Below are positions 2,720-24,964 of a DNA stretch of 32,000 bases, piece by piece. The position numbers were made by a program, and so were the translations under genes. Positions within the stretch are counted from its first letter, which is position 1. Each line of letters begins with the position of its first letter. Under the pieces are notes generated by a model that was not told the DNA's origin, searched no databases, and worked only from the letters and a program-made list of their open reading frames with translations. The DNA lies in assembly GCF_018336915.1 (NCBI RefSeq), contig NZ_CP064924.1, positions 277,760-309,759 on the forward strand, given 5' to 3'. The DNA is from Acaryochloris marina S15 (GTDB lineage: Bacteria > Cyanobacteriota > Cyanobacteriia > Thermosynechococcales > Thermosynechococcaceae).

Positions 2720-3580
2720 ATGCCCAAACAAGCACCGACTCTTGTTCCTCTAGCGCTAGCAGGAGGACAAGGTAAAACCACAATTGCATTAATGACTGGG
2801 AGGATATTAGCGAGTTATGGCATCCCTGTACTATTTGTGGATGCAGATCCACAAGCAAGTCTTACAGCTTTTCTTGGTGTAGACCCAGAAGATCGCCCAA
2901 CTCTCTTGGAAGTTCTAACGCGATCTCCCGACAAACTACCTTTGTTCAAAGCCATACATGCTGTTCCAGAAAGTGAAAATATTTTTCTTATTCCATCTAC
3001 TGATGAACTAGAGAATGCAAACCACTCATTAGCAGCATCACCATCAAGTATCAATGTACTAAGAAATCGAATTCAACAAGTTGGCGAACAGGTAAAGAAA
3101 GAAGAAAAAATCACATCCAATTTTGGGATTATCATCATTGACCCACCCCCAGAACGCTCACACCTTGCTCTCACTTCTCTGGGTAGTGGCGACTGCTGGG
3201 TTATTTGTGCCGAAGCTAATATTAAAGGTGTTCAATCACTCAAAAGAACAAAAGGATTAATTGAAACTTGTCAGTCAATGGTTCCTGCAGGTGAATTAAT
3301 TGGGACAATACCTTTTCGAGCGAAATGGACTGGTTTGAACCCAACTAAAGTCACGAGAACCAACATTGAAGTCATGGAAGTCCTCGTTGGGAAAGATTTA
3401 ATGCTTCCCCATGTATTAGAAAGTGATATTTACAAACGTGCAATAGACGAGCAAACTTTACCAGGAACACTGGGATATGAGCATTTAGAATTTCCGCTAA
3501 GGAGTCTTATCGAAAGAATGAGACCCTCACTCGGAAAATACGCGAAGTCAATTCCAGTCTTGAATACGGAGGAAAATTAA
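2720..3580 (+). CDS. parA: ParA/Soj-family partition ATPase (small, no N-terminal HTH, type Ib-like)
   Basis: Deviant Walker A region LAGGQGKTTIAL followed by VLFVDADPQASLT. Walker B-like IIIIDPPP. Stop and start overlap the next gene (TAATG at 3578-3582). Confidence 0.85.
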   Translation: MPKQAPTLVPLALAGGQGKTTIALMTGRILASYGIPVLFVDADPQASLTAFLGVDPEDRPTLLEVLTRSPDKLPLFKAIHAVPESENIFLIPSTDELENANHSLAASPSSINVLRNRIQQVGEQVKKEEKITSNFGIIIIDPPPERSHLALTSLGSGDCWVICAEANIKGVQSLKRTKGLIETCQSMVPAGELIGTIPFRAKWTGLNPTKVTRTNIEVMEVLVGKDLMLPHVLESDIYKRAIDEQTLPGTLGYEHLEFPLRSLIERMRPSLGKYAKSIPVLNTEEN

Positions 3581-4972: not shown

Positions 4973-6073
4973 TTGGATACCTCACAAAAAACTAGTCTAA
5001 ACCCAACAAGATTACCCTTGCTGGTCTGTGGTAGCTTGCTCGTCGTCGCTCTACTGATAGGAGTTTGGAAATTACCCCAGCGTCAAGCATCCATGCTCAA
5101 ACAGCGAATCGAGAGGGAAGAGAATACTGCGATTTCCCGCGAGAAACTATTTCAGCTTGAAAATACGACTCGTGAGAATTACTTGAAAATCATTCAATCA
5201 TTTGGTGGACTTGGCTTTCTTTTGACAGGCTACTTTGCTTGGAGGAACTTGCAAATGGCTGAGAAAAATCGTGAACTTGCAGAGGGTAAGCAGGTAACAG
5301 AGCGCTTTAGCAAAGCTGTTGAACTTCTCTCCGATTCTAAGAAGCTTGAGGCCCGTATAGGTGGAATTTATATACTAGGCCGTATTGCTAATGATCATCC
5401 TAAAGATCAAATAACTGTGATGGAGGTACTAACAACCTTTATTCGAGAAAAATCGTTAGGAAGTGACCTTGAATGCCAATGTGATGAAGAGTATAGTAAC
5501 GCTGACATCCAATCTGCCCTTAATGTTATCGGCCGTCGTAACGTTGAAAATGATGGAGTTAGAGGATTGTTTCTTTATGGTTCAAATCTAAGTGGTGTAG
5601 ATCTTTGCGATACTAATTTCAGTAATACTGTCTTCAGTATGTGTGATCTCAGTAATGCCTATCTCCGTAAAACTAAGCTAATTAATACAAATTTTTCTGG
5701 TACTAAAATTAAAAAGACAAAGCTATGTGGAGCTTTTTTTAGTGGTGCTAACCTTAGCGGTGCTAACCTTAGCAGTACTGATCTAAGTGAATCTGATCTT
5801 ACTGATGCTGACCTAAGTGAATCCGATCTAAGTGAATCTGATCTTACTGATGCTGACCTAAGTGAATCCAATCTCACTGATGCTATTTTGAGTAGTGCCA
5901 ACCTGAAGAGAGCTAACCTAAAAAGAGCAGATCTTCGTGAGACTAAAGAAATAACTCCTAATCAGATCAAACAAGCAAGTAATTGGGAGCAAGCTCACTA
6001 CAGCGACGATTTCAAAATTCAACTAGGACTATCAACCACCTCTGAAGAGTCAGCAGAAAAGCCCGAAGAATAG
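4973..6073 (+). CDS. Membrane-anchored pentapeptide-repeat protein
   Basis: TTG start. N-terminal hydrophobic segments. The C-terminal half is long A(D/N)LxX pentapeptide runs (ANLSGANLSSTDLSESDLTDADLSESDL...). A 42-bp segment (5783-5824) recurs 45 bp downstream (5828-5869). Confidence 0.8.
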   Translation: MDTSQKTSLNPTRLPLLVCGSLLVVALLIGVWKLPQRQASMLKQRIEREENTAISREKLFQLENTTRENYLKIIQSFGGLGFLLTGYFAWRNLQMAEKNRELAEGKQVTERFSKAVELLSDSKKLEARIGGIYILGRIANDHPKDQITVMEVLTTFIREKSLGSDLECQCDEEYSNADIQSALNVIGRRNVENDGVRGLFLYGSNLSGVDLCDTNFSNTVFSMCDLSNAYLRKTKLINTNFSGTKIKKTKLCGAFFSGANLSGANLSSTDLSESDLTDADLSESDLSESDLTDADLSESNLTDAILSSANLKRANLKRADLRETKEITPNQIKQASNWEQAHYSDDFKIQLGLSTTSEESAEKPEE

Positions 6074-6711
6074 TCCAACAAAATCGATCGACCATAAAAA
6101 TCCCCTTTCTGCTCAATCTTAAATCCACCCAATAGCAGCCCAAGCCAAACCGCTACCAAAGGTAATCGAACTCCCCTCACCAGCTCCACAAACGACACCG
6201 CCCCCTTAGCCCCTTCCAAATACTCTCGGATCGCGCCCACCCATGCCCCCACATCTTCTACATGACTGACTTTCAGGGCAACTGCTTCCCCAGACTCCAG
6301 CTCATCGACAAACTCTAGAACCGCATCCTTACTAACTTCCCCCACAACAGACTCAACAGGAACCCCAGTGAACCCCTGGCGACTCTTCCGTGACTTCGGC
6401 TGACGACATAGATCCGAGACATCCAGAAACATCGTCTGCTGAATCATCCCAGCTAAGAAATCTTCATCCAACACTGGACCTTCTGAGTTGTATCTGTCTT
6501 CCCAACCCTGGATCATTAGCTCTGCCCGCTGCAAACAAACCTCAGCCATATCCTTGATCGCATCTCCAGCTACCCGGAGCTGTTCGTGGGGAGAACGGCC
6601 CTGTAGATGCTGCTCCAGTGAGGCACACATCAGGGAAATATCAGCTTGCTCTGGTTCGTCTAAAGCAGAGGCCAAAGCACTGGCAAAATCAAGCTCAAGC
6701 TGAGTGAACAT
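6019..6711 (-). CDS. Hypothetical acidic protein. The C-terminal segment loosely resembles a ScpA/kleisin-type winged-helix tail.
   Basis: 230-aa ORF overlapping the upstream gene by 17 nt (operon). C-terminus VSFVELVRGVRLPLVAVWLGLLLGGFKIEQKGDFYG. The 3' end overlaps the convergent pentapeptide gene by 55 bp. Confidence 0.5.
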   Translation of the reverse strand: MFTQLELDFASALASALDEPEQADISLMCASLEQHLQGRSPHEQLRVAGDAIKDMAEVCLQRAELMIQGWEDRYNSEGPVLDEDFLAGMIQQTMFLDVSDLCRQPKSRKSRQGFTGVPVESVVGEVSKDAVLEFVDELESGEAVALKVSHVEDVGAWVGAIREYLEGAKGAVSFVELVRGVRLPLVAVWLGLLLGGFKIEQKGDFYGRSILLDYSSGFSADSSEVVDSPS

Positions 6712-7222
6712 GGCGCTTATCCTTCAGTGGACATTCCGCAATTTCACACTCGGTCGGTTCCATGCGGATCGGGGGTTCAAATTCTGTGATGCCATACCGA
6801 TTGCCCAGCACCTTCAGCACCTCCTTCAAATACCGATTCACTTGGGTATTCGTCATCCCCATACAGTGGACGGCTTCAATTTCCGCTAGCTTCTCACTCC
6901 CCTGCCAGACAGCGATAGCCAGAGCATGGAGGTGAGCATCCTTGGGCTTTTCCTTGTAAAGATAGAGCAAAGCCACGGGTGGGGCCAGGACGGGAATCGA
7001 GAAGGTTTCAGTGGTTTTTGCTGGCGCTGTTTTTGCTTTCTGGTCAGCGTATTCTCCTCGGCGCTTGGCATTGCTTTCTTTGCGGTGGCGATAGTGATTT
7101 CGTTTGCGATCGCAGGCATTATCCTTCCAGCACCCATCCCCTTGCGGCCCATGAACCCGCTTTGCTTCCATCCGGGAATAGTCGATGCATTGGAGGCAGA
7201 TGGGGTTTGGAGGTAGTGGCAT
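6695..7222 (-). CDS. Hypothetical protein with a Cys-rich, basic N-terminus
   Basis: 175-aa ORF with CLQC...C...C, then the Arg/Lys-rich stretch RKRNHYRHRKESNAKRRGE and a globular C-terminal half. Several overlapping ORFs in other frames are shorter or featureless. Confidence 0.5.
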   Translation of the reverse strand: MPLPPNPICLQCIDYSRMEAKRVHGPQGDGCWKDNACDRKRNHYRHRKESNAKRRGEYADQKAKTAPAKTTETFSIPVLAPPVALLYLYKEKPKDAHLHALAIAVWQGSEKLAEIEAVHCMGMTNTQVNRYLKEVLKVLGNRYGITEFEPPIRMEPTECEIAECPLKDKRHVHSA

Positions 7223-7535: not shown

Positions 7536-10500
7536 ATGACGAGTCCGAGCCCAGAACAGCAAACCATTCTATTTCTTGCCAGCAACCCTGATGGATTGCG
7601 ACAAGTCGGACGAGAATTACGCGACATTAAAAACGGGTTACGCAGATCTGAGCATCGAGATCAGTTCACTCTATGTCCCTGCCTGGATGTACGTACTAAA
7701 GATATTCAACGGGCATTATTGGATGAAACGCCTCAGATAATTCACTTCGCTGGCAGTGGCAAAGGAGAAGCAGGACTCGTCTTTGAAGATCAAGCAGGCA
7801 ATCCCAAACTTGTCGCAAGTGCAGCCCTAGCAGGTCTATTTACTCTGTTTGCTGAGGACATCCACTGCGTCATTCTGAATGGGTGTTATACCCAGGTGCA
7901 AGCTCAAGCCATCGCTCAACATATTGATTATGTAGTAGGCATGCAGCAGGCCATCAGCCACGAAGCGGCCCTGGCCTTTGCCGTGGGTTTCTATGATGCC
8001 TTGGGTGCAGGCCGAGACATTGAATTTGCCTTTAAGTTGGGATGCAGTGCCATTCAAATAGAAGGCTTACCCGAATCTCTCACCCCGGTGTTGGTCCAAA
8101 AATCTAGCCTTCAATCCGCACCCCTCCACCCCTTACCCGAACAGCAGACTCATGAAAAACTCTGGAAAGTGCCAGAGTTACCCCCCCACTTTTTACCGCG
8201 TCCTCAGACCCTAAAAGCCCTAAGAGAGAAGGTCCTTACGGATCTAGCCCAGCCTGTCGTCATGACCGGGCAACGCGTCGGTGTTCAGGGTATGGGAGGC
8301 ATTGGCAAGTCGGTGTTGGCCACAGCCCTAGCTCGTGACCCTCAAGTTCAATCGGCATTCCCTGACGGTATTTATTGGCTAACCGTGGGGATAGAACCCA
8401 ACCTACTGGCTCAGCAAATCGCTCTAGCAGCAGCCCTCTGTGGTGAACGCCAGGTATTTGAAGATATCAATGAAGGGAAAAACCGCCTCCAAACCCTATG
8501 GCAAGGACGCCAAAGTCTATTGATTCTAGATGATGTCTGGTGCATCGCGGATGCTGACGTCTTCAATGTCCTGGGACATCAAAGTACCTTGGTAGTGACG
8601 ACCCGTGACTCAGAATTAATCACAGGATTAGGGGCCACTGACTTTTCCCTTTCGGTACTCCATGAGGATCAGGCGCTGGAGTTATTAGCCGCCTGGGTGG
8701 GCGTCCCCATCTCAGATCTACCCTCCCAAGCCCAGGAAGTAGCAAGAGAATGTGGCAACTTGCCCTTAGCCCTGGCCCAATGTGGTGCAATGGTGCGAGA
8801 TTTAACCCCTTGGCCCCATGTTCTCAGTGCCTTACAAGATTCAGATCTTGAATTTATCCAAAAACAGTTTAGTCATTATTCCTACCCCGATGTCTTCAAA
8901 GCCCTGCATGTCAGTGCAACGGTCTTAGCAGAAACCAACCCCATCGCTGCCGAACGCTATCAAGAACTGGCAGTGTTTCCAGCCGATGAATTGATTCCTG
9001 AAGCAGTCATTGTTCGCCTATGGCAATATACCGGAGTATTAAAGGAGCGAGATGCGGGCAAAATCCTAACCACCTTATCGAGTAAAGCCATGCTGCGGCT
9101 AGAGGGGGACTATCCCCAGCGGCAAGTCAGCCTCCATGACTTACAGCAGGATTATTTACAAGCCCAGCAAGCCGACCAGAAGGCATTGCATCAGCAACTT
9201 CTGGAGGCTTATCACCAGGGCTGTCCAGAGGGATGGCATTGTGGACCGAAGGACGGGTATTTCTTTGAGCATTTGGCCCATCACCTCCAGCAGGCAGAAC
9301 GCACCGATGAGTTACGGCAATTACTCTGGGACTATCGTTGGATTCAACGCAAATTGGGAGTCACTGATATCAATGCCCTGCTATTGGACTATGAAACCTT
9401 ACCCAAGGACCAAGACCTCAACAGTGTCCACAGTGGGTTACGGTTATCTAGCCATGTATTAAATCAGCATCCTGAGCAGCTTCCCAGTCAGCTCTTTGGG
9501 CGTTTGATGAGTCAAGATTCACCCCATGTGACCGCATTGACTCAATCTTTAGCTCAGGGACCGGGAGAATGCTGGATACGGTGTCTATTCCCCCATCTCA
9601 ACCAAGCGGGGGGAGCATTAGTGCGCACCCTCACCGGACATACTTCCACTGTCTATGGCGTGAGCATCAGCCCCGATGGCCAAACCGTAGTCTCCGCGTC
9701 TTGGGACCAGACCCTGAAGGTGTGGGACCTGGAGACGGGCCAGGAGCAGCGCACCCTCACCGGACATACTAGCCTTGTCAATGGCGTGAGCATCAGCCCC
9801 GATGGCCAAACCGTAGTCTCCGCGTCTTGGGACAAGACCCTGAAGGTATGGGACCTGGCGACGGGCCAGGAGCAGCGCACCCTCACCGGACATATTGCCT
9901 CTGTCAATGGCGTGAGCATCAGCCCCGATGGCCAAACCGTAATCTCCGCATCTAGTGACCATACCCTGAAGGTGTGGGATCTGGAGACGGGCCAGGAACA
10001 GCGCACCCTCACCGGACATACTGACTATGTCGAGGGCGTGAGCATCAGCCCCGATGGCCAAACCGTAGTCTCCGCGTCTAGGGACCAGACCCTGAAGGTG
10101 TGGGACCTGGAGACGGGCCAGGAGCAGCGCACCCTCACCGGACATACTGACCCTGTCTATGGCGTCAGCATCAGCTCCGATGGCCAAACCGTAGTCTCCG
10201 CGTCTGGTGACCAGACCCTGAAGGTGTGGGACCTGGCGACGGGCCAGGAGCAGCGCACCCTCACCGGACATACTGCCTCTGTCGAGGGCGTGAGCATCAG
10301 CTCCGATGGCCAAACCGTAGTCTCCGCGTCTGGTGACCATACCCTGAAGGTGTGGGACCTGGAGACGGGCCAGGAGCAGCGCACCCTCACCGGACATACT
10401 GCCTCTGTCGAGGGCGTGAGCATCAGCTCCGATGGCCAAACCGTGGTCTCCGCGTCTGATGACCATACCCTGAAGGTGTGGGACCTGGAGACGGGCCAGG

Positions 10501-11534
10501 AGCAGCGCACCCTCACCGGACATACTGCCTCTGTCGAGGGCGTGAGCATCAGCTCCGATGGCCAAACCGTAGTCTCCGCGTCTGGTGACCATACCCTGAA
10601 GGTGTGGGACCTGGAGACGGGCCAGGAGCAGCGCACCCTCACCGGACATACTTCCCTTGTCCATGGCGTGAGCATCAGCCCCGATGGCCAAACCGTAGTC
10701 TCCGCGTCTAAGGACCAGACCCTGAAGGTGTGGGACCTGGAGACGGGCCAGGAGCAGCGCACCCTCACCGGACATACTGCCTCTGTCACTGGCGTCAGCA
10801 TCAGCCCCGATGGCCAAACCGTCGTCTCCGCGTCTTGGGACAATACCCTGAAGGTGTGGGACCTGGAGACGGGCCAGGAGCAGCGCACCCTCACCGGACA
10901 TACTGCCTATGTCACTGGCGTGAGCATCAGCCCCGATGGCCAAACCCTTGTCTCCACGTCTTTGGACAAGACCCTGAAGGTGTGGGACCTGGAGACGGGC
11001 CAGGAGCAGCGCACCCTCACCGGGCATACTGACCCTGTCACTGGCGTGAGCATCAACCCCGATGGCCAAACCGTCGTCTCCGCGTCTTGGGACTGTACCC
11101 TGAAGGTGTGGGACCTGGAGACGGGCCAGGAGCAGCGCACCCTCACCGGACATACTTCCACTGTCACTGGCGTCAGCATCAGCCCCGATGGCCAAACCGT
11201 CGTCTCCGCGTCTTGGGACTGTACCCTGAAGGTGTGGGACCTGGAGACGGGCCAGGAGCAGCGCACCCTCACCGGACATACTGCCCCTGTCAATGGCGTG
11301 AGCATCAGCCCCGATGGCCAAACCCTTGTCTCCGCGTCTGATGACCATACCCTGAAGGCATGGGACCTGCTGACCGGCATGGAAGTGATGAGCTTCACGG
11401 GAGAAGGTGCATTTCAATGTTGTGAGATTGCCCTAGATGGTCGCACCGTCATTGCTGGAGATGCTGGGGGACAGCTTTACTTTCTGCGGCTAGAAGGCCC
11501 CAGCTTTTCAGACGACGGGGAGGTTATCTCATGA
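7536..11534 (+). CDS. NLR/STAND-like protein: caspase/CHAT-like N-domain (His to Ser variant) + NB-ARC (AP-ATPase) + Apaf-1-type helical domain + 14 WD40 blades and a degenerate 15th
   Basis: Walker A GMGGIGKS (8289-8312), Walker B LLILDDVW, VVTTRD, GNLPLALAQCG. WD40 units of form GHTxxVxGVSISPDGQTVVSASxDxTLKVWDLETGQEQRTLT. Confidence 0.9.
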   Translation: MTSPSPEQQTILFLASNPDGLRQVGRELRDIKNGLRRSEHRDQFTLCPCLDVRTKDIQRALLDETPQIIHFAGSGKGEAGLVFEDQAGNPKLVASAALAGLFTLFAEDIHCVILNGCYTQVQAQAIAQHIDYVVGMQQAISHEAALAFAVGFYDALGAGRDIEFAFKLGCSAIQIEGLPESLTPVLVQKSSLQSAPLHPLPEQQTHEKLWKVPELPPHFLPRPQTLKALREKVLTDLAQPVVMTGQRVGVQGMGGIGKSVLATALARDPQVQSAFPDGIYWLTVGIEPNLLAQQIALAAALCGERQVFEDINEGKNRLQTLWQGRQSLLILDDVWCIADADVFNVLGHQSTLVVTTRDSELITGLGATDFSLSVLHEDQALELLAAWVGVPISDLPSQAQEVARECGNLPLALAQCGAMVRDLTPWPHVLSALQDSDLEFIQKQFSHYSYPDVFKALHVSATVLAETNPIAAERYQELAVFPADELIPEAVIVRLWQYTGVLKERDAGKILTTLSSKAMLRLEGDYPQRQVSLHDLQQDYLQAQQADQKALHQQLLEAYHQGCPEGWHCGPKDGYFFEHLAHHLQQAERTDELRQLLWDYRWIQRKLGVTDINALLLDYETLPKDQDLNSVHSGLRLSSHVLNQHPEQLPSQLFGRLMSQDSPHVTALTQSLAQGPGECWIRCLFPHLNQAGGALVRTLTGHTSTVYGVSISPDGQTVVSASWDQTLKVWDLETGQEQRTLTGHTSLVNGVSISPDGQTVVSASWDKTLKVWDLATGQEQRTLTGHIASVNGVSISPDGQTVISASSDHTLKVWDLETGQEQRTLTGHTDYVEGVSISPDGQTVVSASRDQTLKVWDLETGQEQRTLTGHTDPVYGVSISSDGQTVVSASGDQTLKVWDLATGQEQRTLTGHTASVEGVSISSDGQTVVSASGDHTLKVWDLETGQEQRTLTGHTASVEGVSISSDGQTVVSASDDHTLKVWDLETGQEQRTLTGHTASVEGVSISSDGQTVVSASGDHTLKVWDLETGQEQRTLTGHTSLVHGVSISPDGQTVVSASKDQTLKVWDLETGQEQRTLTGHTASVTGVSISPDGQTVVSASWDNTLKVWDLETGQEQRTLTGHTAYVTGVSISPDGQTLVSTSLDKTLKVWDLETGQEQRTLTGHTDPVTGVSINPDGQTVVSASWDCTLKVWDLETGQEQRTLTGHTSTVTGVSISPDGQTVVSASWDCTLKVWDLETGQEQRTLTGHTAPVNGVSISPDGQTLVSASDDHTLKAWDLLTGMEVMSFTGEGAFQCCEIALDGRTVIAGDAGGQLYFLRLEGPSFSDDGEVIS
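7557..8102 (+). other. Shared N-terminal domain, copy 1 (candidate clan-CD peptidase-like or adaptor domain). The His position is Ser.
   Basis: IIHFAGSGKG with Ser codon agt at 7755-7757, where copy 2 has His. VILNGCYT with Cys codon 7884-7886. About 60% identical by eye to 11671..12228. Confidence 0.6.
9624..11387 (+). repeat. Fourteen tandem 126-bp coding repeats (WD40 blades) with near-identical nucleotide sequence
   Basis: cgcaccctcaccggacatact recurs at 9624, 9750, 9876 ... 11262, an exact 126-bp phase. Differences cluster in about 5 codons per unit. Confidence 0.95.
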
Positions 11535-11670: not shown

Positions 11671-12768
11671 ATGACTGCCCAAACCATTCTCTTTCTCGCT
11701 GCGAATCCCAAAGATACTAAGACTCTTCGATTGGATCAGGAGTTAAGGGATATTGGTGAGGGTTTACAGCAGGCTCAACGTCGAGATGAGTTTAAGCTTG
11801 AACAGCGCCTGGCGGTTCGCCCCCATGATATTCAGCGGGCCATGCTAGATCTGAATCCCCAGATCGTTCATTTCTCAGGCCATGGGAATGGGGATGAGGG
11901 CTTGGCCTTTGAGGATGTCAGTGGTAATACCCAGTTGGTCAGTGGTGAGGCGATTGCTGACCTGTTTAGCCTGTTTGCCGATCAACTGCGCTGCGTAGTC
12001 CTCAATGGCTGCTATACCGAGGTGCAAGCAAAGGCCATCTCGGAACATATTCCCTATGTTATCGGTATGAAACGGGCGATTGGGGATAAAGCGGCGATCT
12101 CCTTTGCCGTGGGATTCTATGATGCCCTGGGCTCTGGTCGAGATGTGGAGTTTGCCTTTAAGTTGGGCTGTGCCGCTATCCGCATGGAAGGCATTGAAGA
12201 ACATCTCACCCCCGTTCTGATTAAAAAGCCCATTACTGAGGAAACTAAGGATCAGGATCAACCCAATGCTCAAACTCCTCCAACACCCGCGCCTTCTCCC
12301 ATGACTCCAGACGCCGATGGACCCTTAGAGGTCTTTATTTCCTATTCCCATAAAGACGATGATTTACGAGAAGAGTTAGACATCCATCTTTCCAATCTGA
12401 AACGACAGGGGAAAATTGCTGCTTGGCATGATCGGGCGATTGAAGCAGGGGAAGAATGGGAAGCTCAAATCAAAGGCCATCTGGAGTCCGCTCAAATCAT
12501 TCTGCTACTGGTCAGCCCACCCTTTATGGCCTCTGACTATTGCTACGACATTGAGATGCAACGAGCGATAGACCGCCATAACGAAGGCACAGCCCGAGTC
12601 ATCCCTATTATTCTGCGTCCCTGTGACTGGAAAGGGTCACCCTTCAGTAAGCTGAAGATACTCCCTAAAGATGCCAAGCCCGTGACGAAATGGGCTGATC
12701 GCGATGAGGCATTCTTGGATGTCGTCAAAGGAATACGGAGGGCGGTAGAGTCCCTGACAAAAAAGTAG
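11671..12768 (+). CDS. Caspase/CHAT-like N-domain + TIR domain protein. Probably the N-terminal part of a TIR-NB-ARC-TPR protein.
   Basis: ATG at 11671 gives MTAQTILFLAANP, parallel to gene A; the track's GTG at 11629 is less likely. HFSGHG (His 11881-11883) and VVLNGCYT (Cys 12010-12012). TIR at 12328-12756 with FISYSHKDD and SDYCYDIEMQ (Glu 12553-12555). It ends at TAG 12766-12768, directly after A_AAA_AAG. Confidence 0.85.
   Translation: MTAQTILFLAANPKDTKTLRLDQELRDIGEGLQQAQRRDEFKLEQRLAVRPHDIQRAMLDLNPQIVHFSGHGNGDEGLAFEDVSGNTQLVSGEAIADLFSLFADQLRCVVLNGCYTEVQAKAISEHIPYVIGMKRAIGDKAAISFAVGFYDALGSGRDVEFAFKLGCAAIRMEGIEEHLTPVLIKKPITEETKDQDQPNAQTPPTPAPSPMTPDADGPLEVFISYSHKDDDLREELDIHLSNLKRQGKIAAWHDRAIEAGEEWEAQIKGHLESAQIILLLVSPPFMASDYCYDIEMQRAIDRHNEGTARVIPIILRPCDWKGSPFSKLKILPKDAKPVTKWADRDEAFLDVVKGIRRAVESLTKK
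12759..12765 (+). other. A_AAA_AAG heptamer in the correct register for -1 slippage, immediately followed by the TIR-ORF stop. A -1 shift enters the NB-ARC-TPR frame.
   Basis: Zero-frame codons are ACA AAA AAG TAG. The -1 frame reads AAA AAA GTA GAC CAC... and stays open to 15437. It encodes the conserved pre-P-loop segment PHNLPRSGVVEFVGREQTLQDLHQLL upstream of the only candidate start (TTG 12918). Confidence 0.6.
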
Positions 12769-12917
12769 ACCACTCTTCGTCAGGACTCAGTCCACCAACG
12801 GAGAGTCATCAGGGCCAGGGACCAGAAGCCTCGTCATCTTCTCAGGCAAGTCCCCCTCATAACCTCCCTCGCAGCGGTGTCGTTGAATTTGTCGGTCGTG
12901 AACAAACGCTGCAGGAC

Positions 12918-15437
12918 TTGCACCAGCTCCTCCAAAAGAACAATCCAGTAGCCCTTACTGCATTAGCAGGCATGGGTGGGATCGGAAAGACTGAACTTGC
13001 CCTGCAATATGCCATCTCCCAGCTCGATCAGGGTCAGTACCCTGGAGGACTTTGCTGGCTGCGAGTGAAAGGCCAGGCTCTAGCTGCCCAAATTATCGAA
13101 TTTGCCCGGACCAAGTTGGCACTGGCCCTTCCGGATGGACTCAATGAAGATCAACAGGTGAGTTATATCTGGGGGCAATGGCCCACCGGAAAGGTGCTGA
13201 TTATTTTTGATGATGTAAAGGACCTTGAGACCATCGAACCGTACTTACCGCCGTCAGACCCACGGTATAAAGTACTGATTACAACCCGACAGGATTTAGG
13301 TCTATCCGATCATTCCCTTTCCATTAAAGAACTGAGCGATACCAGTGCCTTATCCCTGCTGAGAACCCTAGTTGGAGCAGACCGAATTGATGCTCAGCTC
13401 GACGATGCTCAAGCCTTATGTGGATGGGTGGGTAAATTGCCCTTAGGACTAGAGTTAGTGGGACGGTATCTAGCCAGAAAGCCAGACTGGTCCCTCCAAA
13501 AGCTGATCAAGCGACTTGAATCCAAGCGATTACAAGCCAAAGCCCTGACGACTCCAGCATCAGGAATGACCGCACAGTTTGGGGTCGCTGCTGCACTGGA
13601 ATTAAGCTGGGTAGAGCTGAATGAGGCAGAGCAGGAACTGGCTTGCTTTTTGGGGATGTTTGCGGTTGCTCCTATTCCTTGGACTTTGGTTGAAGGATGT
13701 CTATCCGAACAGGATAAGGATGACTTAGAAGACATCAGAGATGAAGGTTTGAAAGATAGGAACCTACTCAAACGAATAGAAGAGAGTACCTACCAACTCC
13801 ATCAAATTGTTCAGGAGTTCTTTCGGATTAAGTTGAATGAGGATTCCGAACAGGGGAAATCCCTCAAAGCCGCTTATTGCAGAGGAATGGTTGCAGTTGC
13901 TCAGGGTATTAATCAGAATCCAACGATTGATGTGATTGCAGGGATGAGTGCCAGCATTCCCCATCTAGAGGAACTGATCCGACAGTGGATTGACCACCTC
14001 GGTGATGATGAATTGATGTGGCCCTATGTCGGTATTGGTCGATTTTATGAAGGGCAAGGGAACTATGCATTGGCTTTACCTTGGTATCAAAAATGCCTAG
14101 AACAGACTCAACAAAGATTGGGCAATGAACACACCGATGTCGCAACTAGCCTCAATAACCTGGCAGGACTCTACAAAAACCAAGGACGATATGAGGAAGC
14201 AGAACCCCTCTATACACAAGCCCTACAGATGAGACAGAAGCCATTGGGCAATGAACACCCCGATGTCGCAACTAGCCTCAATAACCTGGCATTACTCTAC
14301 GACAGCCAAGGACGGTATGAGGAGGCAGAACCCCTCTATACACAAGCCCTACAGATGACACAGAAGCTCTTGGGCAATGAACACCCCGATGTCGCTCTTA
14401 GCCTCAATAACCTGGCAGGACTCTACGACAACCAAGGACGGTATGAGGAGGCAGAACCCCTCTATACACAAGCCCTACAGATGAAAAAGAAGCTCTTGGG
14501 CAATGAACACCCCTCTGTCGCAAGTAGCCTCAATAACCTGGCAGGACTCTACAAAAACCAAGGACGGTATGAGGAGGCAGAACCCCTCTATACACAAGCC
14601 CTACAGATGACACAGAAGCTCTTGGGCAATGAACACCCCTCTGTCGCAAGTAGCCTCAATAACCTGGCAGCACTCTACGAGAACCAAGGACGGTATGAGG
14701 AGGCAGAACCCCTCTATACACAAGCCCTACAGATGAGACAGAAGCTCTTGGGCAATGAACACCCCTATGTCGCGACTAGCCTCAATAACCTGGCAGGACT
14801 CTACAAAAACCAAGGACGGTATGAGGAGGCAGAACCCCTCTATACACAAGCCCTACAGATGACACAGAAGCTCTTGGGCAATGAACACCCCTCTGTCGCA
14901 AGTAGCCTCAATAACCTGGCAGCACTCTACGACAACCAAGGACGGTATGAGGAGGCAGAACCCCTCTATACACAAGCCCTACAGATGAGACAGAAGCTAT
15001 TGGGCAATGAACACCCCGATGTCGCAACTAGCCTCAATAACCTGGCATTACTCTACGACAACCAAGGACGGTATGAGGAGGCAGAACCCCTCTATACACA
15101 AGCCCTGCAGATGAAAAAGAAGCTCTTGGGCAATGAACACCCCTCTGTCGCAAGTAGCCTCAATAACCTGGCAGGACTCTACAAAAACCAAGGACGGTAT
15201 GAGGAGGCAGAACCCCTCTATACACAAGCCCTACAGATGAGACAGAAGCTCTTGGGCAATGAACACCCCTCTGTCGCGACTAGCCTCAATAACCTGGCAT
15301 TACTCTACAAAAACCAAGGACGGTATAAGGAGGCCAAATCTAATTTAAAGCAAGCACTAAAGATAGTAGAGGTCGTCTTGGGTCCAGAGCATCCTTCTAC
15401 TCGGACCATGCGAAACAACTTAGAGTCCATCCCCTAG
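12918..15437 (+). CDS. NB-ARC (AP-ATPase) + 42-aa TPR (kinesin-light-chain type) repeat protein. The true N-terminus is almost certainly upstream, fused to the TIR ORF via a -1 frame change.
   Basis: Walker A GMGGIGKT (12969-12992), LIIFDDV, ITTRQ, GKLPLGLELVG. Ten near-identical units of form LGNEHPxVAxSLNNLAxLYxxQGRYEEAEPLYTQALQMxxKL. The frame is open from 12708 with no ATG or GTG before 12918. Confidence 0.85.
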   Translation: MHQLLQKNNPVALTALAGMGGIGKTELALQYAISQLDQGQYPGGLCWLRVKGQALAAQIIEFARTKLALALPDGLNEDQQVSYIWGQWPTGKVLIIFDDVKDLETIEPYLPPSDPRYKVLITTRQDLGLSDHSLSIKELSDTSALSLLRTLVGADRIDAQLDDAQALCGWVGKLPLGLELVGRYLARKPDWSLQKLIKRLESKRLQAKALTTPASGMTAQFGVAAALELSWVELNEAEQELACFLGMFAVAPIPWTLVEGCLSEQDKDDLEDIRDEGLKDRNLLKRIEESTYQLHQIVQEFFRIKLNEDSEQGKSLKAAYCRGMVAVAQGINQNPTIDVIAGMSASIPHLEELIRQWIDHLGDDELMWPYVGIGRFYEGQGNYALALPWYQKCLEQTQQRLGNEHTDVATSLNNLAGLYKNQGRYEEAEPLYTQALQMRQKPLGNEHPDVATSLNNLALLYDSQGRYEEAEPLYTQALQMTQKLLGNEHPDVALSLNNLAGLYDNQGRYEEAEPLYTQALQMKKKLLGNEHPSVASSLNNLAGLYKNQGRYEEAEPLYTQALQMTQKLLGNEHPSVASSLNNLAALYENQGRYEEAEPLYTQALQMRQKLLGNEHPYVATSLNNLAGLYKNQGRYEEAEPLYTQALQMTQKLLGNEHPSVASSLNNLAALYDNQGRYEEAEPLYTQALQMRQKLLGNEHPDVATSLNNLALLYDNQGRYEEAEPLYTQALQMKKKLLGNEHPSVASSLNNLAGLYKNQGRYEEAEPLYTQALQMRQKLLGNEHPSVATSLNNLALLYKNQGRYKEAKSNLKQALKIVEVVLGPEHPSTRTMRNNLESIP
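14118..15377 (+). repeat. Ten tandem 126-bp coding repeats (TPR units) with near-identical nucleotide sequence
   Basis: ttgggcaatgaacac recurs at 14118, 14244 ... with an exact 126-bp phase. The last unit is degenerate, and variation is confined to a few codons. Confidence 0.9.
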
Positions 15438-19699: not shown

Positions 19700-21340
<1,641 letters not shown>

Positions 21341-23834: not shown

Positions 23835-24964
23835 CCCAGGGCTGTTTCATTTATCTGAAAGACTTTCTATGCATGACTTCTTGGACTTTTGAATATAGGG
23901 TTATGTCATCTTAAACAAGGACTTTAAGTTGTCTAAGCTAAAGCCAGCTAATCGTTGTGCTTGAGTCACATCTCGAACATGATGTACCTTATTTTCGACT
24001 CCCCAATATCCACGAATTCGGTCAGCAAGAACTTGCACAGGCTCCACAAATGAAGCAACGTAGTAACGAGTCTCTGTAGAGCTTTCAACGATATTAGCTC
24101 GATAGATTTGGCGCTCGGAGACGATACGAATTATGCTTTGTAACCCCGGAAACGCAGGAATACCAGCTAAGTCATGACTGATACTGATTGTCCTTTTTTC
24201 AATACGTCCATGTCCCTTGTTTATTTGCTTTATTGTCTGTTGAGCTTTAAATTCAGCTTCGACGCCTTTAAGTAATCCAGATTGATTTCCCTTGAGTGCT
24301 CCTAGATAATTATTGCCACTATCTATAATCGTCTGGGCTGTTTTTTTTGGGTACTGATTGCATCAAATGCAAATACGACACCCTTGAGTGCCAACTGTTC
24401 AATAAATGCAGGAAGCGCGGTGATCTCGTTCGTTTTCGAGTCAACCTCATAAGGTTCCAGAATCAGCCCTCGTTCAACAATATAAGCACTGACGAGCATT
24501 ATCGCTGGATGCGAGTCTAACCTTGGGTCATCACTGATGGCTTCATATGACCCACGCAGTACTTTCCCGTCAGTCGCAATTGTTTCTCCAGGCAAGGGCT
24601 TAATCTCGAAAAACCGAGATAAACACTCTCCATACGAGAGATACTCTATCCGCAACAAGGTACGCCGAATTGTACTGTAGGAAGGTAAACGGCCTTTATG
24701 AGGGGCAAACAAAGTAACCAATTGAGCATGGTATGCCTTTAACCAATCTCCGATGGCGAGGAATCCACGATTGCCTGCGGCTACTGCAAGGGTGAATAGG
24801 GCTAAACATAACGATTGAGTGTGTCTTCGCCCTCTAGCGCGACGATTGTCAGGCAGATCGCAAAAGGCTTCGACAATAGCAATTTCAGGCATTCGGGAGG
24901 CTCAGGATATTGGGGCTGACTCCCTACCATATCAACGGCTCTATGAGAATGAAACAGCCCTGGG
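23835..24964 (-). mobile_element. ISAs1-family insertion sequence (~1.13 kb) with 17-bp perfect terminal inverted repeats
   Basis: cccagggctgtttcatt at 23835-23851; its reverse complement aatgaaacagccctggg at 24948-24964. The repeats enclose a single transposase gene. No clear target-site duplication was found. Confidence 0.75.
23901..24892 (-). pseudogene. ISAs1-family (H-repeat-associated type) transposase, frame broken in an A8 run
   Basis: N-terminal part DLPDNRRARGRRHTQSLCLALFTLAVAAGNRGFLAIGDW. After the A8 tract (T8 at 24341-24348 on +), the -1 frame continues TAQTIIDSGNNYLGALKGNQ...YWGVENKVHHVRDVT, ending at TAA (23901-23903). Confidence 0.8.

Follow-up and report, generated by a model that had tools for sequence, protein, structure and literature searches.

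A His-less CHAT domain on an Apaf-1-like protein and a candidate -1 frameshift cassette in the adjoining CHAT-TIR gene of Acaryochloris marina

Genes at the locus and their CHAT module

The window analyzed here, a 32,000-nucleotide (nt) stretch of Acaryochloris marina S15 (contig NZ_CP064924.1, positions 277,760 to 309,759), carries three genes in a row on its plus strand. Gene A (7536-11534; 1,332 amino acids [aa]) encodes, as judged from its open reading frame (ORF) and Pfam, a degenerate CHAT domain, an NB-ARC/APAF1_C region, and 14 WD40 repeats. Gene B (11671-12768; 365 aa) encodes, according to Pfam and PADLOC, a CHAT domain with intact His and Cys followed by a ThsB-like TIR domain. Gene C (12765-15437) is an ORF with Pfam NB-ARC and tetratricopeptide repeat (TPR) matches that lies in the -1 frame and is open from a slippery heptamer at the gene B end. 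Plasmid pMB04 of Acaryochloris sp. 'Moss Beach' has 93% identity to the window, over the 80% of the query region that aligns, and plasmids pREB7 and pREB8 of A. marina MBIC11017 carry paralogous blocks. RefSeq names the homologues of the three genes "NB-ARC domain-containing protein," "TIR domain-containing protein," and "tetratricopeptide repeat protein," and an exact look-up of gene A in public assemblies gave no match. Two features of the locus are described here, namely, the CHAT domain of gene A, which lacks the catalytic His, and the end of gene B, a candidate site of programmed -1 recoding. The explanation as a whole, in which the dead CHAT domain is a docking or regulatory module and recoding occurs at the gene B end, appears reasonably probable to us.

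The N-terminal domains of genes A and B share 56% identity over 199 aa (E = 9e-82), far beyond chance. In gene A, the domain (7557-8102) has the motifs IIHFAGSG and VILNGCYT, with a Ser codon (AGT, 7755-7757) at the catalytic His position and a kept Cys codon (TGT, 7884-7886) at the catalytic Cys position. In gene B, the domain (11671-12228) has IVHFSGHG and CVVLNGCYT, and its dyad consists of His71 (CAT, 11881-11883) and Cys114 (TGC, 12010-12012). The spacing between the two positions is 43 residues in each copy. The four codon positions, read from the translations, as well as the motifs and spacing, agree throughout with a preliminary description of this sequence, which had proposed a caspase- or CHAT-like fold for both domains.

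Several lines of analysis bear out that fold. Pfam CHAT (PF12770; gathering score, 24) matches the N-terminal domain at 27.1 bits in gene A and 37.5 to 40.1 bits in gene B, the alignment spanning profile positions ~101 to 256 of 289. The PADLOC 'chat' model scores 57.7 bits for gene A and 93 bits for gene B, and the PADLOC SAVED_CHAT model scores 27 bits for gene B. When a profile of the family was compared with solved structures, a single match was returned, to the CHAT domain of SAVED-CHAT (PDB 8TL0, residues 287 to 454; E = 2.4e-21), with the HF.GHG and LN.C motifs paired and His71 and Cys114 placed on GHG and NAC. SAVED-CHAT is a type III-B CRISPR-associated protease (Steens et al., bioRxiv 10.1101/2023.06.23.546230). 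The GHG His and NAC Cys are 47 residues apart in the 8TL0 chain, as are the published catalytic residues H375 and C422.

Structure prediction gave the same picture. The AlphaFold2 model of the gene B domain (predicted local distance difference test [pLDDT] score, 81.9; predicted template modeling [pTM] score, 0.83) has 8TL0 as its top Foldseek match in the PDB, with a template modeling (TM) score of 0.82, and places His71 after a strand at residues 65 to 69 and Cys114 after a strand at residues 108 to 112. For the gene A domain (pLDDT, 87.6; pTM, 0.87), 8TL0 is again the top PDB match (TM score, 0.75). The next matches for both domains are caspase-4, -6, and -9, C11 peptidase, MALT1, separase, DdvA, and Csx29. 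The profile search and the structure prediction, both proposed as checks in the preliminary description, returned a caspase/CHAT fold for the two copies and not a non-caspase fold. Almost certainly, the ~185-aa module is a CHAT domain of compact size, with the caspase fold of clan CD, and belongs to the type represented by the SAVED-CHAT protease domain.

The module itself is a new member of a known family that is abundant and already annotated. Domain searches among 90%-identity clusters recovered 2,081 and 1,058 proteins, nearly all with PF12770. NCBI gives many homologues the name "CHAT domain-containing protein," and fusions to effector-associated domains (EADs; PF19955, PF19962) or to TIR occur in some. 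An exhaustive search of 50%-identity cluster representatives found 18,308 relatives when the cutoff was E ≤ 1e-3 and 5,271 when it was E ≤ 1e-30, with the module at either protein end and often in tandem. NCBIfam has no model for the N-terminal domain. The suggestion that the domain may be an undescribed minimal variant is not upheld, because a CHAT domain of this compact size has already been solved and biochemically characterized.

Gene A is an Apaf-1-like STAND protein. Its Pfam matches are NB-ARC (96 bits), APAF1_C (49 bits), and WD40 (14 copies), and within 8289-8540 it has both a Walker A motif (GMGGIGKS, 8289-8312) and a Walker B motif (LLILDDVW, 8517-8540). The WD40 array (9623-11369) consists of 13.9 copies of a 126-nt unit that are 93% alike, with amino acid variation limited to ~5 positions per 42-aa repeat (GHTxxVxG and SASxDxT units). 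The TPR array of gene C (14118-15334) is likewise built of tandem 126-nt units, in 9.7 copies that are 93% alike, with ~5 variable positions per 42-aa repeat. Both arrays recall the repeats of fungal nucleotide-binding leucine-rich repeat (NLR) proteins, which combine high internal conservation with hypervariable positions. Repeat number varies among gene A paralogues, which are 1,332 aa long in the window, 1,293 aa on pREB7 and pREB8, and 787 aa on pMB04.

The TIR domain of gene B (12325-12765), delimited by Pfam and alignment, matches TIR_2 at 60.6 bits (gathering score, 28) and PADLOC ThsB1 at 211 bits. The Glu in CYDIEMQRA (12541-12567), which we take to be the catalytic Glu from what is generally known of TIR NADases, is invariant in 7/7 aligned homologues. 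A ThsA-like partner (SIR2, Macro, or SLOG) was found neither among the three genes by PADLOC nor among the scanned neighbors by Pfam, and only the TIR part fits Thoeris.

The catalytic dyad and the His-less clade

Conservation of the dyad was surveyed with a hand-made hidden Markov model of the domain in 352 instances of it, drawn from 319 proteins plus the two window genes. His and Cys are both present in 298/352 instances (85%), and the others, which lack His or lack Cys, are often one copy of a tandem pair. Among CHAT-TIR genes of the gene B type, the dyad is kept almost without exception, and in gene B itself the alignment with the GHG and NAC motifs of SAVED-CHAT predicts proteolytic activity. 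Across the 352 domains, two positions vary even less than the dyad residues do: His67 of the 'VHF' strand (11869-11871; 346/352) and Cys108 of 'RCVVL' (11992-11994; 340/352), in gene B numbering. SAVED-CHAT has an equivalent of His67 and none of Cys108.

Two readings of the pair had been offered earlier, an active protease in gene B with a degenerate copy in gene A or a purely homotypic, noncatalytic adaptor in both. The second could draw on the 56% identity of the two domains and on the very conserved C-terminal helices in both. Its difficulties are the frequency of the dyad, which is too high for such a role both across the 352 instances and in gene B-type CHAT-TIR genes, the stronger constraint on the gene B domain (dN/dS of 0.05 to 0.13 among four Acaryochloris copies), and the closest solved relative, which is an active protease. 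We regard adaptors in both genes as scarcely credible. The comparative data favor the first reading, as the dyad is kept in gene B's type and the clade of gene A, to judge from its aligned sequences, always lacks the His.

This clade comprises the close relatives of the gene A domain (proteins P0121 to P0129 and P0143 and full-length genes in loci L005, L006, L007, L021, and L088), all of which lack the catalytic His and all of which have the Cys. The His position is occupied by S, N, R, or Q; P0123, with the motif HFAGSA, aligns with S. In identity clustering, with the two catalytic columns excluded from the distance, the His-less sequences form an exclusive cluster of 12/12 unique members that contains zero His-containing intruders and has Cys in 12/12. 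Every CHAT domain fused to a gene A-type NB-ARC is His-less, and two CHAT domains fused to the other NB-ARC type plus TPR (P0190 and P0223) retain the dyad. This pattern fits a single loss of the His, followed by free drift at that one position. Among the same four Acaryochloris copies, dN/dS for the dead domain of gene A is 0.12 to 0.28, indicating that it is still under purifying selection.

By sequence, then, the gene A domain is a CHAT-family pseudo-enzyme, and it is very probably a noncatalytic yet functional module. The strict retention of Cys in the dead clade weighs against our interpretation, as it has no explanation in a recruitment model, and the invariant His four residues upstream of the lost one could in principle rescue some activity. 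A still active gene A protease would use the retained Cys together with another general base, for example, this His of IIHFAG. The Cys in 12/12 clade members and the near invariance of the upstream His would be in keeping with such a protease, whereas the catalytic position holds the chemically unrelated residues S, N, R, and Q within one clade. Moreover, the H375A/C422A double mutant of SAVED-CHAT, in which the dyad residues are 3.8 Å apart in the active filament, has no protease activity (bioRxiv 10.1101/2023.06.23.546230), and the His altered in that mutant is the GHG His, the one that gene A lacks. Residual proteolysis by gene A is therefore very improbable.

Genes of the gene A type lie directly upstream of an intact-dyad CHAT gene, usually CHAT-TIR, in the window and in L088, L006, L007, L005, L021, L091, and L092, and the pairing holds for every recovered gene A-type locus that has downstream sequence. 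L090 has the same layout, with a downstream CHAT that is split in the alignment and a fragmented gene A. CHAT-TIR genes also occur without gene A (L001, L003, L009, and L059). Gene A thus depends on a gene B-type neighbor, and gene B is independent of gene A, an asymmetry that is expected if A is a sensor without an output of its own and B is an effector.

How the two proteins might work together can be sketched as follows. Triggering of the WD40 sensor of gene A would cause its NB-ARC domain to oligomerize, and the clustered pseudo-CHATs would then dock free CHAT-TIR through CHAT-CHAT contacts. The induced proximity would switch on both the protease and the TIR enzyme of CHAT-TIR. The logic would be that of Apaf-1/caspase-9 and cFLIP/caspase-8, with a dead caspase-like domain replacing CARD or DED. 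TIR enzymes require oligomerization. In SAVED-CHAT, ligand-driven oligomerization rigidifies the CHAT domains, and CHAT-CHAT contacts in the filament include a four-helix bundle (bioRxiv 10.1101/2023.06.23.546230). It is on these two precedents that the docking model is based. From the comparisons made here, recruitment of the neighboring CHAT-TIR by the dead CHAT of gene A seems at least an even prospect and perhaps a slightly better one.

Further points count against recruitment. The docking of A and B through their CHAT domains is pure inference. The gene A CHAT has 56% identity to that of its neighbor, whereas its identity to other intact copies reaches 67%; by this comparison, the neighboring CHATs show no sign of co-evolution or gene conversion. 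Several relatives of gene A are also fragmented in metagenome contigs, as is one 'Moss Beach' copy (P0121, L090, and L091), which could reflect real frameshift decay or assembly indel errors. Some of these relatives are split into two to three overlapping ORFs and others end after ~260 aa (P0121; L090, 8001-10462; L091, 6341-10215; L092, 8001-8783), and the intact downstream CHAT gene is still there at the fragmented loci.

The dead CHAT of gene A may instead be an inhibitor or decoy that keeps CHAT-TIR inactive until the sensor fires, a dominant negative like short cFLIP, or it may be a bait or peptide-binding module for a phage factor. Inactive caspase domains are documented in conflict systems, where ~70% of the caspase domains that occupy the 'effector position' lack catalytic activity and dominant-negative or peptide-binding roles have been proposed (Kaur et al. 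2020). The loss of His, the retention of Cys and of the fold, purifying selection, and obligate pairing fit inhibition and recruitment equally well, and nothing in the present data separates the two. Nevertheless, CHAT-TIR genes exist without gene A, so the effector has no general need of this inhibitor, and we consider an inhibitor or decoy unlikely.

The junction between genes B and C

Gene B ends with ACA AAA AAG TAG. The slippery heptamer A_AAA_AAG (12759-12765) stands in the gene B register and is followed at once by the TAG stop (12766-12768). A stem-loop is predicted at 12768-12810, and its 9-bp main stem, which pairs 12772-12780 with 12798-12806, begins 6 nt past the heptamer. The -1 frame of gene C is open from the heptamer and gives the trans-frame reading ...KKVDHSSSGLSPP...NLPRSGVVEFVGRE...; the predicted junction peptide is ...ESLTKKVDHSSSGL... 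in the window, and those of pREB7 and pREB8 are ...LTKKVDNSPSGLSPPTESYQ... and ...LTKKVDTSSSGHSPP.... Gene C has an NB-ARC match of 52.6 bits, a Walker A motif (GMGGIGKT, 12969-12992), a Walker B motif (LIIFDDV, 13197-13217), and TPR repeats. Its first ATG, GTG, or TTG is codon 51 (TTG, 12918), downstream of the conserved NLPRSGVVEFVGR motif, and no start codon is found upstream of that motif in the window, L007, or L088. The same junction is present in pREB7, pREB8, and pMB04 and in the unrelated metagenome locus L091. In L091, the -1 ORF offers no start codon ahead of a Met within the P-loop GMGGIGKT, so an NB-ARC with an intact N terminus could not be made independently.

A sequencing error or a recent frameshift mutation at this junction can be rejected, as the same A6G-stop recurs on both plasmids of A. 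marina MBIC11017, on the complete plasmid pMB04, and across many independent assemblies, and as ...KK is also the end of CHAT-TIR proteins in unrelated genomes.

The frameshift idea was at one point weakened by L005, which has the heptamer and no -1 ORF, and a wider survey reversed that. The ends of every TIR gene were tabulated in 80 further loci with a TIR alignment and considered together with the other loci compared here. A_AAA_AAG plus a stop closes the gene at 16 non-redundant loci, and at 13 of these a -1 ORF of 280 to 890 codons opens at the heptamer, compared with 6 of 53 control TIR gene ends that lack the heptamer and have an open -1 frame (Fisher p = 2.9e-7; 2.5e-5 after paralogues were collapsed), the cut-off being at least 280 codons for heptamer loci and at least 100 for controls. 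In the heptamer loci that were checked, the +1 frame closes within 1 to 54 codons. Where the heptamer is disrupted, as it is in two relatives (AGG AAG and AAG AAG), the -1 ORF is absent.

The base before AAA_AAG is always A, in seven different codons (ACA, GCA, TCA, AGA, AAA, ATA, and CCA), and the residue before Lys-Lys varies accordingly among T, A, S, R, K, I, and P. Since the third base is fixed while the residue varies, the constraint lies at the nucleotide and not the protein level. The cassette precedes -1 modules in at least nine lineages (the window, L001, L006 to L008, L012, L013, L015, L026, L059, L075, L088, and L091). The modules behind it are of six unrelated kinds: NB-ARC-TPR, an AAA_16/nSTAND1-like ATPase, CHASE2, a transmembrane segment with Peptidase_C14, a weak nucleotide-cyclase match, and an unknown helical protein. 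Stems of 5 to 13 bp are predicted to begin 3 to 7 nt past the heptamer in 10/11 distinct junction sequences, with modest segment z-scores. Predicted stems of other sequence occupy the equivalent position in L001, L008, L012, L013/L015, L026, L059, and L091, the last being a perfect 10-bp stem 6 nt downstream of the heptamer.

Some homologues carry the same parts in a single frame. Database proteins P0320 and P0327 read TIR-linker-NLPRSGVVKFVGR-NB-ARC without interruption, and P0320 is collinear with the predicted trans-frame junction, with 46% identity across the whole 252-aa query. In L047 and L056, X-CHAT-TIR-ATPase is likewise read as a single frame. Depending on the lineage, then, these modules are joined in frame or via a -1 junction. 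Single-frame TIR-NB-ARC-TPR proteins lacking CHAT are found at many metagenome loci (L004/L014, 5164-7956 on the minus strand; L010, L030, L038, L074, and others).

These comparisons suggest that programmed -1 recoding probably occurs at 12759-12765. Several observations weigh against it: L075 lacks a hairpin; the folding z-scores of the whole 94-nt segments are modest (-0.9 to -2.0); three loci (L003, L005/L014, and L046) have the heptamer and no -1 ORF, with hairpins that take in the stop codon; and several -1 ORFs have a possible GTG or TTG start 4 to 18 codons in, where independent initiation is possible. The last two observations would also be expected of a junction that is not programmed, with gene C made from a noncanonical or downstream start or being a 5'-truncated remnant and A_AAA_AAG merely encoding a conserved Lys-Lys C terminus. 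RefSeq annotates the gene C homologue as a separate coding sequence from TTG, and Rfam yields neither a frameshift element nor any other credible RNA family there, both of which are in line with this alternative. However, the annotated TTG start in the window (12918) would drop the conserved FVGR motif ahead of the P-loop, and the sole start available in L091 lies inside the P-loop itself. An unprogrammed junction also sits poorly with a -1 frame that is open back to the heptamer across so many lineages and unrelated modules, with the fixed preceding A, with stems of differing sequence predicted at canonical spacing, and with the existence of in-frame fused homologues. We consider it somewhat unlikely.

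Under programmed recoding, most ribosomes would terminate at TAG and yield CHAT-TIR, and a fraction would shift to -1 and yield CHAT-TIR-NB-ARC-TPR. The same fusion protein could arise by ribosomal frameshifting or by transcriptional slippage on the A6 run. The tRNA-Lys repertoire of the host affects the shiftiness of A_AAA_AAG. The locus would then supply a free effector together with a pair of sensors that use it, the first joined to it in cis by frameshifting and the second working in trans via the dead CHAT. As a tentative proposal, whose chances we place a little short of even, a portable -1 cassette (A_AAA_AAG, stop, and stem-loop) would fix the ratio of free to sensor-fused effector while unrelated modules are swapped in behind it, and in the Acaryochloris plasmids the free effector would also be recruited in trans via the dead CHAT of the WD40 sensor.

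Genomic setting, known systems, and significance

The surroundings of the three genes are plasmid-like, and the best matches are Acaryochloris plasmids. Context ORFs of this kind lie at 2720-3580, 1757-2284, 4973-6073, 19700-21334, and 24323-24892 of the window; the context includes a ParA/MinD-type ATPase (AAA_31/CbiA), a staphylococcal-nuclease homologue, a pentapeptide-repeat protein, a Cpn60-type chaperonin gene, and a DDE-transposase-associated ORF. No tRNA genes are found within the window. Two overlapping minus-strand ORFs of 230 aa (6019-6711) and 175 aa (6695-7222) have no Pfam match. The 175-aa ORF stands at the equivalent site directly upstream of gene A on pREB7, pREB8, and pMB04, and on pREB8 a second ORF of ~214 aa adjoins it. 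The two ORFs may be part of the same mobile or functional unit as gene A.

Apaf-1-like and bacterial NLR-like proteins are reportedly treated by Koonin and Aravind (2002). SAVED-CHAT resembles the window genes in its compact CHAT domain of ~190 aa, in its aligned HF.GHG and LN.C motifs, and in being the best match in both sequence and fold. Its sensor, however, is a cA3-binding SAVED domain and not a STAND NTPase, and it has no TIR, dead-CHAT partner, or frameshift site. Like Apaf-1/caspase-9 and 'all-in-one' bacterial NLR-like proteins that have CHAT or TIR at the N terminus, the locus combines an NB-ARC, APAF1_C, and WD40 sensor with a caspase-fold protease that it would control. Unlike in those proteins, the sensor-borne CHAT is dead, the live protease is the next gene, and the presumed adaptor is a pseudo-caspase and not a CARD or EAD. 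cFLIP lacks both His and Cys and docks via DED domains. The cFLIP/caspase-8 pair shares with genes A and B a dead paralogue of the protease domain matched to an active enzyme, whereas an A/B heterodimer is hypothetical and gene A keeps its Cys.

CHAT and TIR are frequent N-terminal domains of bacterial NLRs (Dyrka et al. 2020). In type IV Thoeris, the TIR and the caspase-like protease are separate proteins linked by diffusible N7-cADPR (Rousset et al., bioRxiv 10.1101/2024.10.24.620036). Gene B has a ThsB1-type TIR, and cooperation of a TIR enzyme with a caspase-like protease is common ground with type IV immunity; in contrast, gene B has both on one polypeptide, with STAND sensors attached and no ThsA-type partner found. 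A_AAA_AAG is the classic -1 slippery heptamer of dnaX and IS3/IS911-type elements (Atkins et al. 2016, PMC5009743). The junction shares with these the identical heptamer, a predicted 3' stem-loop ~5 to 7 nt downstream, and, if recoding occurs, two products from one gene. It differs in that the 0-frame stop abuts the heptamer, that the shifted frame adds a sensor or regulator module of 280 to 890 aa, and that the gene is of cyanobacterial immune type.

A look at the literature on frameshifting in TIR, STAND, or anti-phage genes found nothing relevant. We found no earlier report in which recoding controls the stoichiometry of an NLR-like immune system in prokaryotes, and none in which a bacterial apoptosome-like sensor has a pseudo-caspase for its adaptor. 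Nor did we find described a coherent His-less CHAT clade on Apaf-1-like NB-ARC proteins (with WD40 where the gene is complete), the obligate pairing of such a clade with an intact CHAT effector gene, or a frameshift cassette with exchangeable downstream modules. The interest of the locus rests mainly on the recoding cassette and the pairing with a pseudo-protease and not on the idea of a minimal caspase.

If these readings are correct, a clade of dead-CHAT, Apaf-1-like sensors beside a live copy would offer a bacterial counterpart, simple and testable, to the regulation of caspases by pseudo-caspases and to recruitment in the style of the apoptosome. The frameshift cassette would provide a bacterial immune effector made both free and sensor-fused from one gene, and it would account for the N-terminally truncated 'tetratricopeptide repeat' or 'AAA' annotations downstream of CHAT-TIR genes.

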